The notes below the pieces were generated by a model. It made no database searches. It saw only the letters and a program-made list of their open reading frames with translations, and had not been told where the DNA came from. 64,000 nt of DNA, from positions 1 through 64,000 of the IMG/VR virus record IMGVR_UViG_3300027763_000036; one strand, 5' to 3'. Shown piece after piece: positions 2,712 through 22,303 of this stretch. The translations under genes and the position numbers were made by a program. Each line of letters begins with the position of its first letter. Positions within the stretch are counted from its first letter, which is position 1. Source of the DNA: a virus.

Positions 2712-3806
2712 TTATATTGGTTGTAGGTTGTAATTTCGCCACACTATCTTGCTTTGGTCAAAATCTTCCAAAGCTTCTTTAACCCACTTTTCATCTACAG
2801 TTCCTATGTAACATAGTATGTGCACAATAGCCTTGTCATCTGGGTTTAAGCGCAAAAGTCTCCCTATTCTCTGACTAGCCTTACGCTCATTCCCATATGC
2901 ATGCATAATAATTCCTTGTTTTAAACCCGGTATATTTACACCCTCATTTAATTGCAATACACATGAGAGCTTTGTAATATTACCAGCCTTAAAATCTTGC
3001 AAATTTGCTTCAGAATCAGGGTTATTACTATGATAGCTATGTGTACACATTCTATCAGCTTGATCTTGAGTATTAGCAAATACAATACACTTACTACTAA
3101 TACTTTTTAGTAGTTCTTTAGCATATCTTTCTTTACTTGGATACTCCATCATAGCTTTCATTCTCATTACTCTAAGTATGTGAGGTTGTCCTGCTGATGT
3201 GTCAATCCTTGTACCCCAATAACCATAATTCTGAGCTTCAGAGGTCATAAATGACTTATTCTTTGTCTCAACTTTATAATTCTTTGCTGTATCTAGATTG
3301 ATCTCATGTACAATTATTTGATAGCTGTTAATAATACCTGATTCTATTGCATCATCTGCCTTAAATGTAAAAACAACTGGACAATACTCAGATACTAGTT
3401 TACCTTTCTCAGAACTCTTATGCTTAGGTGGAGTACCTGTTAGACCAAGTACCATTCCTGAATAATTATCTAAAAAAGTTTTGTGACTATCAAGTAAAGA
3501 ATGAACCTCATCAAAGTAAATACAATCATACTCTCCTGGGTGATGTTTATTCAAGCTTAGATAAGTTGTAAATGTAACATTTTCCAATAGTCTACTCATC
3601 TTAAACTTTTCTGCTTCATATCTCCATGAGCTTATAATAGATAATTTGGGAGCTACAACTAAAATACTACGCAAAGGAGAATAGTGTTTTTCCATGTGCT
3701 TTAAACCTACAAGGGTTTTACCCACACCTGTACCAAGTACAATAGTGCATCTTTGTTTACCCTCAGTAGCATTTATTGCTTCTGTTTGTATTTCTTCTCT
3801 GTTCAT
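2712..3806 (-). CDS. Superfamily 2 DNA/RNA helicase
   Basis: Walker A GTGVGKT, DEVH, motif III LTGT, motif VI QRIGRLLR. Confidence 0.9.
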   Translation of the reverse strand: MNREEIQTEAINATEGKQRCTIVLGTGVGKTLVGLKHMEKHYSPLRSILVVAPKLSIISSWRYEAEKFKMSRLLENVTFTTYLSLNKHHPGEYDCIYFDEVHSLLDSHKTFLDNYSGMVLGLTGTPPKHKSSEKGKLVSEYCPVVFTFKADDAIESGIINSYQIIVHEINLDTAKNYKVETKNKSFMTSEAQNYGYWGTRIDTSAGQPHILRVMRMKAMMEYPSKERYAKELLKSISSKCIVFANTQDQADRMCTHSYHSNNPDSEANLQDFKAGNITKLSCVLQLNEGVNIPGLKQGIIMHAYGNERKASQRIGRLLRLNPDDKAIVHILCYIGTVDEKWVKEALEDFDQSKIVWRNYNLQPI

Positions 3807-3816
3807 AATTTGTAAG

Positions 3817-4239
3817 TTATTTTAAATATCCAAGAGCTCTAGACTCTTTCGGGTTTAAGTGTAACCAATCATGGCAGTTCCTACAGACCGCAAGCCATGT
3901 AGACTGCACTAAATAAAAAGCATCTCTATTAGCACCAGAATGTGTATGGTGTACATCTGTGGCATTAATATCACAACCTTTTACTGCTATTTGACACAGA
4001 CTGAAATCTGTAAGAAATCTCTTTCTTAGTTTGAGATACTCTGCATCTTTCTTTTTCCTTTTAGAAGAAACCTGAGGGATTTTATAATCAGTTGGTTTCT
4101 GTATATTATCTTTATTCTTGGGATTTTGGCAACTCCAACAATACTTACAATACTTGAATCCCCCGGTTTCTCCACTTTTCCAGATGTGTTTTTCTAAACC
4201 ACATCCATCACAAATTTTTAATTTAATTTTAATTGACAT
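3817..4239 (-). CDS. HNH endonuclease with N-terminal Zn ribbon
   Basis: CDGC...CKYC; C-x6-C...DVHH...CRNCHDWLH. Confidence 0.75.
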   Translation of the reverse strand: MSIKIKLKICDGCGLEKHIWKSGETGGFKYCKYCWSCQNPKNKDNIQKPTDYKIPQVSSKRKKKDAEYLKLRKRFLTDFSLCQIAVKGCDINATDVHHTHSGANRDAFYLVQSTWLAVCRNCHDWLHLNPKESRALGYLK

Positions 4240-5089
4240 AGACTTCTATATTTGTGATCTCTTTCCATAAATAACCATAAGCAGTTCTCTGTATAACACC
4301 TTTAATAGCATTATCAATAGAGTTATGACTCTTTAGTTTTAACTTTTTCTTTACATCATTAAGAGATGAGAATTTGTTTAATAGTATACCATCAAGTGAA
4401 TACTGTTCAATTATTCTTTTTACTCTACAGTAGTTTCTATTATGTGAAAGAATATAACCTTTTACAGTAACTCTTTTACCATTTAAACCCTCTCTAACAT
4501 GATTTGCTGTAGTATTTAATTGTCTAGCTGTTTCTTCAATAGATTTATAACTAGTAATATATTCAGCTGTTTTAGAAAAGATAAAAACCTGTTTAGATAG
4601 TTTATCAGTCCATGGATCAATAACTTGTTTCTTAAAGGTTTTAAATTGGAAGTTACTAGCTTTATAATCACTTTTACATGACTGATATATAGAAGTTTCA
4701 CTTATACTAAGAACATGAGCAGCTTCTTTTGCTGAAATCCATTCTGCAATAAATTCTCCAGTTAACCTATATTGGTAGACTTTAGTAGAATCTTTCCATT
4801 TATGACCACCAGGAGCCTTGTTCAATAATAAACCATTACCATGAATCTTTCTACCATATTTAGATATAAGTTCAACTTCTTTAGCACAAGCATCTTCTTT
4901 ATTGTCATAGATAGCAATAATACTCACAGAATAATCATTTATAGAGGTATATTCAGTCCATTCAAATTGTCTCTTTCTATTCTTACTATAAGCTCTAGAG
5001 TATTCATTGTTATTAACTGAAGAACCTATACCAACATAAAATACAGTGTTGTCAACAATATTTGTATGAGTGTAAACATAATAATACAT
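4229..5089 (-). CDS. GIY-YIG homing endonuclease with NUMOD1 repeats
   Basis: YYVYTH...VFYVGIG...R...E catalytic pattern; three NUMOD1-like repeats (VYQYRLTGEFIAEWISAKEAA etc.); start moved to 5089, downstream of TATATTTG. Confidence 0.8.
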   Translation of the reverse strand: MYYYVYTHTNIVDNTVFYVGIGSSVNNNEYSRAYSKNRKRQFEWTEYTSINDYSVSIIAIYDNKEDACAKEVELISKYGRKIHGNGLLLNKAPGGHKWKDSTKVYQYRLTGEFIAEWISAKEAAHVLSISETSIYQSCKSDYKASNFQFKTFKKQVIDPWTDKLSKQVFIFSKTAEYITSYKSIEETARQLNTTANHVREGLNGKRVTVKGYILSHNRNYCRVKRIIEQYSLDGILLNKFSSLNDVKKKLKLKSHNSIDNAIKGVIQRTAYGYLWKEITNIEVYVN

Positions 5090-5111
5090 ATGGAAGAATT
5101 GTTTTATACTA

Positions 5112-5119
5112 CAAATATA
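5112..5119 (-). promoter_or_regulatory. Bacteroidota-type -7 promoter element (TATATTTG) for the endonuclease
   Basis: Matches TAnnTTTG, 22 nt upstream of ATG 5089. Confidence 0.55.
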
Positions 5120-5160
5120 ATACATTTCTTCCACATAGTTATCTTATTTTGTTTTCTCTT

Positions 5161-7632: not shown

Positions 7633-7661
7633 AATGTTTAGTTTAGTTAATAAGTAGATAG

Positions 7662-7735
7662 TGATCCTGTTTGGATTCGAACCAAAGACCTATTGCTTAG
7701 AAGGCAATTGCTCTATCCAGCTGAGCTACAGGACC
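7662..7735 (-). tRNA. tRNA-Arg (anticodon UCU)
   Basis: GGTCCTG/CAGGATC acceptor, D-arm GCTC/GAGC, anticodon stem ATTGC/GCAAT with loop CTTCTAA, T-loop TTCGAAT; CCA not encoded. Confidence 0.95.
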
Positions 7736-8486: not shown

Positions 8487-8831
8487 TTAAAAGGGTAAAT
8501 CTAAATCAACAGGTTGGCTAAAATTTTCCATACCTAATGCGCTATCTAACAGTGCTTGCTTCTTACATGCAAGTTTATGCATCTTAGCATTAACTTGATA
8601 TAGTTTGAGTTTTTCAAACCACATGATATACTTTTCACTTGATCTTGTATTCCAATGTACAACACCTTCTATTCTGTAGAGGTGTGGATTCTTTCTGCTA
8701 TTGCAGTAAGCCACATCAAAATCATATTCTTTCCTGATCTCAATAGCATCTTCAGGTGTAAGATTCATGTTAAGTTTAATCAGAGTGTGGCTACCAAATG
8801 AATGGTAACCAAAAGGGACTGTTTTGTTCAT
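8487..8831 (-). CDS. Hypothetical protein ending in DLPF
   Basis: 114-aa ORF with an SSB-like acidic C-terminal tip. Confidence 0.75.
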   Translation of the reverse strand: MNKTVPFGYHSFGSHTLIKLNMNLTPEDAIEIRKEYDFDVAYCNSRKNPHLYRIEGVVHWNTRSSEKYIMWFEKLKLYQVNAKMHKLACKKQALLDSALGMENFSQPVDLDLPF

Positions 8832-8876
8832 AAGTTTATTTTTAAATTGTTAATCATAATATAAAATCATAGTCAC

Positions 8877-9160
8877 CTAGTGACAAGAATATATAGATAA
8901 AGTCAAATTCAAATACTAAGGCAAAGACCTTCTCTTCTACAAAGGCAAATACAAATACTAAGTCTCAATGTTAGCCAATTGCATATAATGCATAACCTGT
9001 CTAACTTGGGAGTTCTATCTCAGTTTTTATAGTTTGAAGAGAAGCGGTAATTATTAGTAATTTTAATTTTATAAGTGGTATCACCACATACTTTATTAAA
9101 AAAATTCTTGTCACTAGATATAAAGAGTAGAGGAATCAGCTTGTGCCTATCCCCTACTCA
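8877..9160 (-). ncRNA. Candidate structured RNA downstream of the 303-aa gene
   Basis: Perfect 14-bp closing stem (9104-9117/8877-8890), inner 9-bp stem (9036-9044/8929-8937), nine in-register hexamers, 5' hairpin GAGTAGGGGA...TCCTCTACTC. Confidence 0.7.
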
Positions 9161-9175
9161 CCTAATACCAGTACA

Positions 9176-10087
9176 CTATTTCTCAGGTGTCATGAATAAG
9201 TCAATGACATTCTGAAATCTAGGATCAACATTGATTCTCAATGCTGCAGCAGCTTTAACATTCAACTCTCGTTGAGCATTAAATTCCATAGTAAGCCTAC
9301 ACAACTCACCTTTGTACTCATCCATAGCAAGAGTATATTCTCTGTTAAGAGCTTCTTCTTGCTTTAGGAAAATAGCAGCTTTATCTGCATTTTCTTTTTG
9401 GATACGTGCATTCTCATCACTAACTAAGTTCTTAACCTTGGCTTTGAAGTAGTTTACACGTTGCTCATACTTGCGGTGCTCTTCAGCAACATCTTCATGC
9501 AATTGCATTAAAGACTGAGAGTCATGATGCTTAGTAATCTTAACAGGAGTTTTCTTATTATCCTCTACATTGAACCATTCAATGCTAGGCATGTTAGATA
9601 ACTCTTTTCTAAGACTAGACAACTTACCATTTTTATGGATAAATTGACCCAAGTGAGATGCCATAGCTTCTACTTGCAAATACTCTGAGTATTCTACATC
9701 AGAAAGTCTAGACCATCCCCATGATTCTTCAACATCTTGAATAACATCATAGTCAGTTGCATACTGTCTCTTAGGTTCCACAAGATGAGAGAAATCAGGA
9801 CGCGTATTCTGGATTCTCTCTATCTCAGCATCTTTACCCTTGATAGCTTCCATAAGGAATGCTTGGCAAGCATGTAAGTCACCCTTGATTTTAAGTTTCT
9901 CAAGGATATTATCCGGAATCACAGATGCCTCTTGCATCATATAAGACTGACCACTAATGGTAATAGTCTTACTGCAGTTGTTATAAGATTCCAACTCACG
10001 TTGAATCTCCAAAGCATTTTGGTTGCACAAGTTAGATACTGATTGTGCTTGGGACATGCTTAAACCCTTGGTAGATAAATTTCTCAT
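9176..10087 (-). CDS. 303-aa alpha-helical/coiled-coil hypothetical protein
   Basis: Long ORF with heptad-rich segments; no catalytic motif recognised. Confidence 0.85.
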   Translation of the reverse strand: MRNLSTKGLSMSQAQSVSNLCNQNALEIQRELESYNNCSKTITISGQSYMMQEASVIPDNILEKLKIKGDLHACQAFLMEAIKGKDAEIERIQNTRPDFSHLVEPKRQYATDYDVIQDVEESWGWSRLSDVEYSEYLQVEAMASHLGQFIHKNGKLSSLRKELSNMPSIEWFNVEDNKKTPVKITKHHDSQSLMQLHEDVAEEHRKYEQRVNYFKAKVKNLVSDENARIQKENADKAAIFLKQEEALNREYTLAMDEYKGELCRLTMEFNAQRELNVKAAAALRINVDPRFQNVIDLFMTPEK

Positions 10088-10563: not shown

Positions 10564-10693
10564 TTACCCCTCTGCACTCAGTTGTAACACTAATCTTTAA
10601 CCACTATTGATAAGTTGGGTCAAGAAACCATAATTTGTATATATGGTGTTACAACTGCTCACCCTTGGGAAGTGAGTTATGGTGCATTAATAA
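10564..10693 (-). ncRNA. Twister ribozyme (type P1, with long P5 insertion)
   Basis: P1 TTAT/GTAA, L1 UAA, P2 TGCA/TGCA, T2 CC/GG, P4 CTCAC/GTGAG with loop TTCCCAAGG, 3' GA-GGG (T1), 12-bp P5 CAGTTGTAACAC/GTGTTACAACTG. Confidence 0.75.
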
Positions 10694-11456: not shown

Positions 11457-11515
11457 GTTTAAATTAAACTCACATAGCTTTATCAATACTATGTGTAAAA
11501 TACCTGATTTTTAAG

Positions 11516-11701
11516 TCTGCACTAACTTTGGATTATATCACTGCAAATGATAAGTAGCACTATAAATCTCTTTGCAGGAGAAATACAGAACCCAATAGTA
11601 GCCCCACAGGTTTGTCACTGTTTGCTAACAGTAATGAACTTTGCTTGACATCAACAACCCCGTCAAGTATAAACTTGAGTGTAAACCGTATAGAGTGCAA
11701 A
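11516..11701 (-). ncRNA. Candidate ~185-nt structured RNA
   Basis: Closing TTTGCACT/AGTGCAGA; inner ACGGTTT/AAACC-TGT, CTTGAC/GTCAAG, TACTGTT/AACAGTG. Confidence 0.5.
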
Positions 11702-21883: not shown

Positions 21884-22303
21884 ATGTCAATAGGAAATTT
21901 AAAAGATTATGGTAATAAAGGAAATAATTTTCCTTGGCAATTAAAAGTATTAACAGGGTTACAATCTACTTTTGATGAAATAGGAAAAGTAATTCAATTA
22001 TTAACAAATATAGAGGGATACACTAGTCTTTTACCAGGTATTTTAGCAAATACAAATCCAAACGCAAGAACACCTGTATTTCTTAAAGATACAGGAACAT
22101 TTACAGTTATTCCACAGTGTTATAGTCTTTCTATTACTAGTACGGGAACTGCTGCAGCACTTGTAAATGGCGCACCTTTAACTACTGGTCAATCTATTAG
22201 TTTTGATGCAGGTTCATTAAATAATTACTTTAATAATGGCTCTTTTAATGTAGACACAGTTACAAATTTTGGTGCTGAAGTAATAATTACTTATGTGTTT
22301 TAA
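21884..22303 (+). CDS. Structural hypothetical protein
   Basis: 139-aa ORF. Confidence 0.75.
   Translation: MSIGNLKDYGNKGNNFPWQLKVLTGLQSTFDEIGKVIQLLTNIEGYTSLLPGILANTNPNARTPVFLKDTGTFTVIPQCYSLSITSTGTAAALVNGAPLTTGQSISFDAGSLNNYFNNGSFNVDTVTNFGAEVIITYVF

Follow-up and report, generated by a model that had tools for sequence, protein, structure and literature searches.

The first 64 kb of virus record IMGVR_UViG_3300027763_000036 in IMG/VR (113.5 kb, 97% complete, G+C content of ~33%) are referred to here as the window. The genes in the left arm of the window lie on the minus strand, and one of them, an open reading frame (ORF) for a protein of 303 amino acids (aa), is followed by a gap of 344 nucleotides (nt) (9175–8832) before the next ORF begins. 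What does this gap encode, and how is it related to the gene that precedes it? The gap encodes a genuine, conserved and strand-specific structured RNA of ~300 nt. Its fold z-score was −3.98, and none of 100 shuffled sequences folded as well. A first-pass annotation of the locus had placed a structured RNA after the 303-aa gene, an assignment that is borne out by this z-score, by covariation in the helices H1, P1, P2 and P4 and by the strict linkage of RNA and gene (79 of 80 loci). Every element that it listed (ORF, hairpin, stems, distal arm and hexamer tracts) was recovered on the minus strand where it had been placed. The features of the locus, read along the minus strand, are as follows.

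9176–10087, minus strand: ORF of 303 aa, from the ORF call
8870–9167, minus strand: the whole conserved structured RNA, ~298 nt, delimited by the limits of alignment conservation, nhmmer and the fold z-score
9125–9159, minus strand: H1, a 10-bp hairpin whose internal loop is conserved and which carries an apical mini-stem (UAGGCACAAGCUGAU); both sides change in 10 of 10 pairs, 89.9% of cells paired
9104–9120, minus strand: 5′ strand of P1, the 17-bp closing stem; both sides change in 17 of 17 pairs, 90.1% paired
9049–9103, minus strand: J1/2, an A-rich variable 5′ region; in alignments its length and sequence differ between phages
9036–9048, minus strand: conserved ACCG, then the 5′ strand of P2 (CUUCUCUUC); both sides change in 9 of 9 P2 pairs, 94.3% paired
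9010–9024, minus strand: central 15-mer ACUGAGAUAGAACUC, invariant in most members
8970–9005, minus strand: P4/P5 distal arm, GUUAG.CAG ... UUG.CUAAC; both sides change in 6 of 8 P4 pairs, 97.8% paired
8939–8962, minus strand: tract 1, CUUAGU AUUUGU AUUUGC CUUUGU; conserved core and fixed length
8927–8937, minus strand: 3′ strand of P2 (GAAGAGAAG), then the GU of the invariant GGUCUUUG; covariation and invariant alignment columns
8891–8926, minus strand: tract 2, CUUUGC CUUAGU AUUUGA AUUUGA CUUUAU (8926–8897), then conserved CUAUAU; fixed length and lag-6 autocorrelation
8874–8890, minus strand: 3′ strand of the closing stem P1, on the same basis as its 5′ strand
7661–7735, minus strand: tRNA-Arg(UCU), on the same strand 1.1 kb downstream of the RNA, given for context

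For the covariation count, the structure was defined from the window and scored on an alignment of 67 sequences, with 500 shuffles and slid-partner controls. Paired cells amounted to 84.7%, compared with 71.2% in the shuffles, and changes on both sides were found in 55 of the 66 pairs tested. The covariation score was 0.455 for the observed alignment, 0.211 for the shuffled alignments and 0.10–0.16 for the slid controls, and none of the 500 shuffles reached any observed value. G·U pairs outnumbered A·C pairs in the well-aligned helices (325 versus 61), which identifies the gene-sense strand as the one that folds. Intergenic identity was 72–97% in all 18 of the 18 viral loci found via the protein alone. 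The RNA core was conserved at least as well as the DNA of the ORF in 9 of 10 comparisons (0.56–0.81 versus 0.58–0.69), with the 3′ half of the RNA, which contains the tracts, being its most conserved part.

The RNA starts ~9 nt past the stop codon and ends with a conserved GAC/AAC just beyond the closing stem. The strands of H1, GAGUAGGGGA and UCCUCUACUC, lie at 9159–9150 and 9134–9125, respectively, and its 15-nt loop is nearly invariant in alignments across the family, with one loop pair alternating among A-U, G·U and A·C. H1 was not called as an intrinsic terminator by the terminator scan, and it is followed by just UUUAUA, without a U run. Given that its loop is conserved and that it forms part of the RNA family, H1 is not merely a terminator. 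The perfect 14-bp closing stem of the first-pass annotation is present (9117–9104/8890–8877), and it extends to 17 bp (9120–9104/8890–8874) when G·U pairs are counted; the duplex energy of P1 was −20.8 kcal/mol for cognate and −7.9 kcal/mol for non-cognate partners. In the window, J1/2 carries a small hairpin (GUGGU/ACCAC) at 9087–9075. P2 consists of 9 bp, formed by CUUCUCUUC at 9044–9036 and GAAGAGAAG at 8937–8929, and the P4/P5 arm reads GUUAG..UGCAU-UAU-AUGCA..CUAAC, with an apical hairpin whose length varies among relatives. The central 15-mer has two candidate pairings, a local hairpin (UGAG/CUCA) and a long-range pairing with CUUAGU/GAG; the long-range pairs are uninformative because they never vary, and the most divergent members have a longer covarying local hairpin in place of the 15-mer.

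A further hairpin, GUCAC-UAG-GUGAC with a U-rich tail (window 8872–8884, minus strand), overlaps the 3′ strand of P1. This alternative hairpin covaries in close relatives (for example, GUUAC-UUA-GUAAC) and could act as a weak terminator or a switch. UNCG tetraloops were somewhat enriched among the variable hairpins (12 of 175) as scored with a crude hairpin finder.

Linkage of the RNA to the 303-aa protein

A scan for the invariant 15-mer together with nhmmer yielded 105 RNA loci, including far more divergent copies, and further scans and nhmmer searches brought the number to 184 loci, of which 109 are unique. When loci were instead chosen by protein motifs, 79 of 80 had the RNA directly downstream of the gene, including members that lack the 15-mer; the 80th locus stops at the gene, without downstream DNA. 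Conversely, in the set picked by RNA motif, a homologue of the 303-aa protein (41–92% identity) lies directly upstream wherever upstream DNA exists, and the downstream genes differ. In most loci, no more than ~10 nt separate the stop codon from the start of the RNA, and in some members, in which 150–300 nt are inserted between gene and RNA, the RNA has been kept. The first-pass annotation had anticipated that homologous genes would be accompanied by covarying stems and conserved hexamers in register, and both were found next to them. The RNA and the upstream 303-aa gene constitute an obligate two-part module, found across a wide range of crAss-like phages, from freshwater among other habitats. 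The terminase, portal and capsid proteins of the window show ~25% identity to their distant counterparts in crAss-like, Flavobacterium and Cellulophaga phages.

For the protein's most distant relatives, the surroundings of the gene were read from two GenBank records. In Bajarodcaudo virus 1 (PQ006092.1), the homologue precedes a hairpin, a long closing stem, UUG-ending hexamers and an AAC at the terminus, and the fold z-score is −5.08. In MT836666.1, a scaffold from the human gut, the homologue is shorter; after it come P1, P2, a tract containing three GUCUUUG units and, past P2, GGUCUUUG (z-score of −4.18). The versions of the module held by gut phages look like reduced or diverged ones.

The RNA-equivalent region of Bajarodcaudo virus 1 contains an annotated hypothetical coding sequence (CDS) of 59 aa, XHH63432.1 (L219:3918–4094), which is probably a spurious ORF call. 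The homologue in MT836666.1 has 229 aa (L228:895–1584), and the reduced RNA, which lacks the first hairpin, follows it directly; the short ORF could be natural or could reflect an assembly frameshift, the record being marked as unverified.

The protein belongs to a large family: one database contains 2226 homologues and another has 789 clusters at the 50% identity level, with all members being ~300 aa and standing alone. Searches of Pfam, PHROGs, NCBIfam and PADLOC with the protein, its distant members or the whole alignment returned nothing consistent, and a sequence profile search of the Protein Data Bank (PDB) with the protein found nothing below an E value of 0.25. A structure model obtained with AlphaFold2 (predicted local distance difference test score, pLDDT, of 83.8) consists of two modules, each with a helix, a beta-hairpin and a long helix. 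With the whole protein as query, and without a separate domain search, the best match in the PDB had an E value of 0.06 with Foldseek, and the best Z score against 48,161 chains with VIA-align was 6.3, for generic helical proteins. BFVD returned the protein's own family alone, and the ESM Atlas gave no usable match. The sequences also share a conserved histidine cluster.

Modeling of the protein as a complex with itself predicted a symmetric homodimer. The homodimer scored 0.62, compared with 0.00 for the best of three controls, and the runs agreed in at least 100% of contacts, with a partner pLDDT of at least 85. The same mark of 0.62 was reached by 20 of 30 structures with a pair of identical chains and by 1 of 23 single-chain structures, counts that are rough given that an alignment made for this analysis was used.

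Transcription and genomic surroundings

Four metatranscriptome runs (freshwater, river and lake) were studied of the 24 listed as holding part of the stretch. The transcription data consist of assembled contigs and report presence in RNA libraries rather than ends, strand or level, and uncovered parts were not interpreted. In two freshwater samples, single contigs of a close relative cover both the ORF and the RNA, and a lake library yielded a 185-nt contig that lies wholly within the RNA, whereas run X3 gave short pieces alone. In run X7, the depth was 111.7 on the 185-nt core contig and ~10.7 on the ORF, a difference that cannot rank expression because the conserved sequence pools strains. 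A terminator-like hairpin with a T run was found no more than 110 nt past the RNA in 18 of 66 representatives.

The contigs of the close relative (runs X1 and X2) have an additional 367 bases that separate the RNA from the gene after it (window 8835–8869). The junction downstream of the RNA is therefore a hot spot for insertion, the RNA itself being intact.

Divergent members from larger phages carry the module inside arrays of 11–20 tRNA genes. A tRNA was present within 3 kb in 71 of 124 unique loci, and every such tRNA was on the strand of the RNA. In locus L127, which has 18 tRNAs, ARAGORN identified a suppressor tRNA (anticodon UUA) at 4571–4648, directly upstream of the protein homologue, a finding that hints at stop-codon reassignment in that lineage.

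Two other features of the same arm were recorded. A Hatchet ribozyme at 11502–11638 of the window (minus strand) matched its Rfam family over the full length with 81 bits (gathering score, 51) and sits upstream of the gene and RNA module in an ORF-poor, RNA-rich stretch. At 10564–10693 (minus strand), the Rfam scan of the window at gathering thresholds gave no twister family. A homing-endonuclease-like ORF (phrog_314) adjoins a DNA helicase gene (phrog_16), at 4229–5134 and 2712–3806, respectively, both on the minus strand.

Hexamer tracts and the possible role of the RNA

The tracts were compared among 68 representatives with <90% mutual identity. Their unit is N-U-U-(U/A)-G-N, with conservation of mostly 0.85–1.0 for the UU(U/A)G core and 0.4–0.7 for the flanks. 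For tract 1 the corresponding ranges were 0.71–1.0 and 0.49–1.0, and conservation along tract 2 showed a lag-6 autocorrelation of 0.37. The first hexamer of tract 2 lies inside the invariant GGUCUUUG (8929–8922). Neither tract contained an insertion or deletion in any of the 68 sequences, all of which had 18 nt from G218 to G236 and 24 nt in tract 2. The distance between the tracts across the 3′ strand of P2 was 18 nt in 39 of the 68, 19 nt in 28 and 20 nt in 1. The 6-nt register that the two tracts were said to share across a 12-nt spacer was thus confirmed for the window and not for the family: given that the distance varies, the common register belongs to the window. Matches to TTTGNNTTTGNNTTTG with at most one mismatch, corresponding to three TTTG hexamers in register, numbered 10 in the 64-kb window, with 1.68 expected, and 5 of the 10 were inside the RNA. 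Tandem Repeats Finder called no repeat; the period is visible as the UU(U/A)G core with variable flanks. A stretch of complementary (CAAANN)n at 22047–22068 lies inside a coding region and was taken as chance.

In the RNAfold prediction, tract 2 is paired with J1/2, the variable and A-rich 5′ region. This pairing was not specific, with energies of −12.4 kcal/mol for cognate and −11.8 kcal/mol for non-cognate partners and a z-score of ~0 relative to shuffles. Given that the P1 control separates cognate from non-cognate partners and the tract 2 duplex does not, the conservation of the tracts does not derive from pairing with an opposite strand. The view that the tracts are unpaired therefore held up in these comparisons, and the tracts probably remain exposed instead of forming pairs.

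We tentatively favor, with a confidence approaching an even chance, the reading in which the RNA is a protein-binding scaffold at the 3′ end of the gene's transcript, with the dimeric gene product as its likeliest ligand. The RNA would be made as the 3′ end of the transcript of the 303-aa gene. H1 and the multi-helix domain closed by P1, with its variable hairpins, P2, the central 15-mer and P4/P5, would serve as the scaffold, and the tracts, as the 3′ strands of two large internal loops, would provide single-stranded binding sites held by the helices. The favored ligand would be the gene's own product, whose predicted symmetric homodimer would match the two similar tracts. The boundaries of the transcript, the single-strandedness of the tracts, the binding of the adjacent protein and the downstream role are points that we infer, and our suggestion of a part in RNA or tRNA metabolism is a guess. 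A larger proposal, which we regard as rather doubtful, is that a homodimer of unseen fold and its own 300-nt RNA form a new phage ribonucleoprotein (RNP) through two UUUG-hexamer rulers and act on the RNA machinery of host or phage. Such an RNP might, for example, handle tRNAs from the arrays or capture cold-shock-type RNA chaperones.

Several observations weigh against the scaffold reading. The protein is mildly acidic (pI of 5.6–6.2), without a recognizable RNA-binding domain or fold. The strict adjacency of gene and RNA is equally expected for a purely cis-acting element in the 3′ untranslated region (3′-UTR), and the tract motif also suits the preference of a host cold-shock protein. The central region of the fold is left with alternative pairings, and nhmmer gave no better than marginal E values (0.017 and 0.52) for the two most distant phages. 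The RNA-library evidence comes from assembled contigs alone, for which DNA carry-over is possible and in which the core may pool reads of several strains.

The main rival holds that the RNA is a sponge or recruiting platform for a host protein that binds single-stranded RNA, such as a cold-shock-domain (CSD) protein, an S1 protein or a U-rich-specific RNase, with the 303-aa protein in a separate or helper role; we consider this unlikely. Cold-shock domains have a site size of 6–7 nt, to which the 6-nt period of the tracts is close. The phage encodes no CSD, RRM or TRAP protein, and Bacteroides thetaiotaomicron, examined as a Bacteroidota control genome, has both CSD and RRM proteins. The preferred site of Bacillus subtilis CspB is reported to be 5′-GTCTTTG/T-3′ (PMC1904285), and the invariant or nearly invariant GGUCUUUG contains GUCUUUG, apparently in a single-stranded context as judged from the pairing tests; the other hexamers are close variants, and the distant gut version carries three copies of the heptamer. 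This match is, however, a resemblance to a Firmicute preference, measured for the Bacillus protein on DNA oligonucleotides, and the constant adjacency of the 303-aa gene would be left without an explanation. That adjacency is what would be expected if the RNA were a purely cis-acting 3′-UTR element without a function in trans, such as one that shields the mRNA from 3′ exonucleases, directs its processing or termination or serves as an operator for autoregulation. The short distance from the stop codon to the RNA (~10 nt or less in most loci) and its linkage to one gene fit such an element, as do the terminator-like hairpins after the RNA in 18 of 66 representatives and the GUCAC-UAG-GUGAC hairpin that overlaps P1. 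An RNA of ~300 nt with at least five helices and with unpaired sequence more conserved than the ORF nevertheless exceeds the needs of known stabilizers and terminators, and the RNA is kept despite the inserts of 150–300 nt that separate it from the gene in some members; we judge the cis-acting element to be somewhat more improbable than the host sponge.

The location of the module in tRNA arrays of 11–20 genes, the presence of tRNAs at 71 of 124 loci and the tRNA-Arg(UCU) 1.1 kb downstream in the window raise the alternative of a tRNA-cluster RNA, which together with the protein acts on tRNAs or their precursors, or which serves as a decoy for a host nuclease directed at tRNAs or U-rich spacers. 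These counts are inflated by shared synteny among relatives, the RNA has no tRNA-like domain and the protein matches no known tRNA enzyme, and we give this alternative little credence. It is most improbable that the element acts at the DNA level, with the hexamers as iterons or promoter boxes and the stems as single-strand initiation structures of a replication origin served by the adjacent protein. The gene does lie in the early/replication arm near the helicase, and repeats beside an initiator gene are the classical layout of an origin. The covarying stems, however, use G·U five times as often as A·C, so that one specific strand folds; a 6-bp period is off helical phasing; the GC-skew turning point of the window is at ~14–16 kb, not 9 kb; and terminators follow the element in many members. 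As for promoter boxes, the RNA of the window lacks the Bacteroidota −7 box, TAnnTTTG, which among the 68 representatives occurs in tract 1 of 2 and in tract 2 of 8. The first-pass annotation had also suggested an RNA whose internal reading frame is entered non-canonically, or a template; the former would resemble transfer-messenger RNA (tmRNA), and the latter would be a template for repeats. The frame that it pointed to, DLVFVFAFVEEKVFALVFEFDFIYIF, does exist, being open over 43 codons with alternating Phe and lacking a start codon as described. Stop codons lie directly upstream of it, though, the variable positions of the tracts are two adjacent bases per six rather than every third base, the 1-nt change of spacer in 29 of 68 representatives breaks the frame, and ARAGORN found no tmRNA; nor does the module have a polymerase or reverse transcriptase associated with it. 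We therefore reject both versions, which have next to no chance of being correct.

The scaffold reading, in which the gene's own product is the likeliest ligand, remains the one that we favor. If the larger proposal were true, the module would represent a new class of virus-encoded RNP that is widespread in crAss-like phages. These phages rank with the most numerous viruses that infect Bacteroidota, and for the majority of their early genes no function is known. Capture of a host RNA chaperone by the RNA, or joint action with the tRNA arrays, would reveal a new route by which phages take over host RNA metabolism. The module provides a concrete and widespread protein/RNA pair for study, with 789 protein clusters at 50% identity, no known fold, strong covariation in the RNA and an unusual, exactly spaced array of probably single-stranded motifs. 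At a minimum, the results give a well-supported new RNA family for Rfam and a correction of spurious small ORFs in deposited phage genomes.

Known families and systems

The RNA and the protein are both new families, and that of the RNA, a large one, is absent from Rfam. A scan of the window at the gathering thresholds of Rfam 15, which covers tmRNA, RNase P, 6S, Y RNA, GOLLD, ROOL and the known ribozymes, found the Hatchet ribozyme and a tRNA elsewhere and nothing at the RNA, and a permissive Rfam scan (E values up to 10) of 8700–9300 gave four chance-level matches (E values of 0.14–1.6) to unrelated eukaryotic and ocean families. A DNA search with 1.5 kb against 50,697 phage records gave no match, and text searches of the literature found no description of the RNA or the protein. 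All 120 of the 120 matches listed for the 15-mer in bacterial genomes were chance ones and therefore gave no hint of the host.

Two types of system in which a protein gene and an RNA are joined were considered and rejected. The RNA does sit at the 3′ end of the gene, as in RNA-guided RuvC/HNH nucleases of the TnpB/IscB type, but the protein has no Pfam or NCBIfam domain and no nuclease fold among its structure matches. Type III toxin-antitoxin systems such as ToxIN have tandem RNA repeats of ~34–36 nt upstream of an endoribonuclease toxin gene, whereas the unit here is 6 nt, the RNA is downstream and PADLOC gave no match. The place of the module in the phage genome is fixed, with no sign of mobility. 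In having a structured RNA that is encoded and inherited beside one protein gene, the module is like phi29 pRNA, Ro60-Y RNA and TnpB/IscB-omega RNA, with none of which it shows similarity in sequence, profile or fold.

GOLLD, ROOL and T4 species 1/2 are structured phage RNAs of unknown function that are found beside or inside tRNA clusters. The RNA described here is likewise phage-borne and tRNA-adjacent. It differs from these RNAs, which are not known to be tied to a single protein gene, in its tie to one such gene, in having no Rfam match and in its size of ~300 nt, GOLLD and ROOL being ~500–800 nt.

The tracts resemble the CsrB/RsmZ sponges and the TRAP trp-leader array in that many short motifs, here probably single-stranded, are regularly spaced in a manner that suits a dimeric or ring-shaped protein. 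The motifs of CsrB/RsmZ are GGA in hairpin loops, unlike the UU(U/A)G motifs at a 6-nt period inside closed loops found here. The TRAP site consists of (G/U)AG at 5–6 nt in a leader, whereas the RNA described here has two tracts of fixed length; measured against 9–11 (G/U)AG triplets placed 2–3 nt apart, it has UAG or UUG every 6 nt in tracts of 4 and 5–6 units, with UUG dominant. The phage genome has no match to TRAP (PF02081).

The T4 gene 32 operator combines a pseudoknot with a repeated, A/U-rich unstructured tract in a 5′ leader and controls the start codon. Our RNA differs from it in lying after the stop codon and in being far larger, and the 303-aa protein is no recognizable single-stranded-DNA-binding protein. 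The two are nevertheless alike in that a structured nucleation element stands beside a periodic tract, probably unstructured in our RNA, that could be coated by a cooperative single-strand-binding protein, and is linked to the gene of the candidate binding protein itself.

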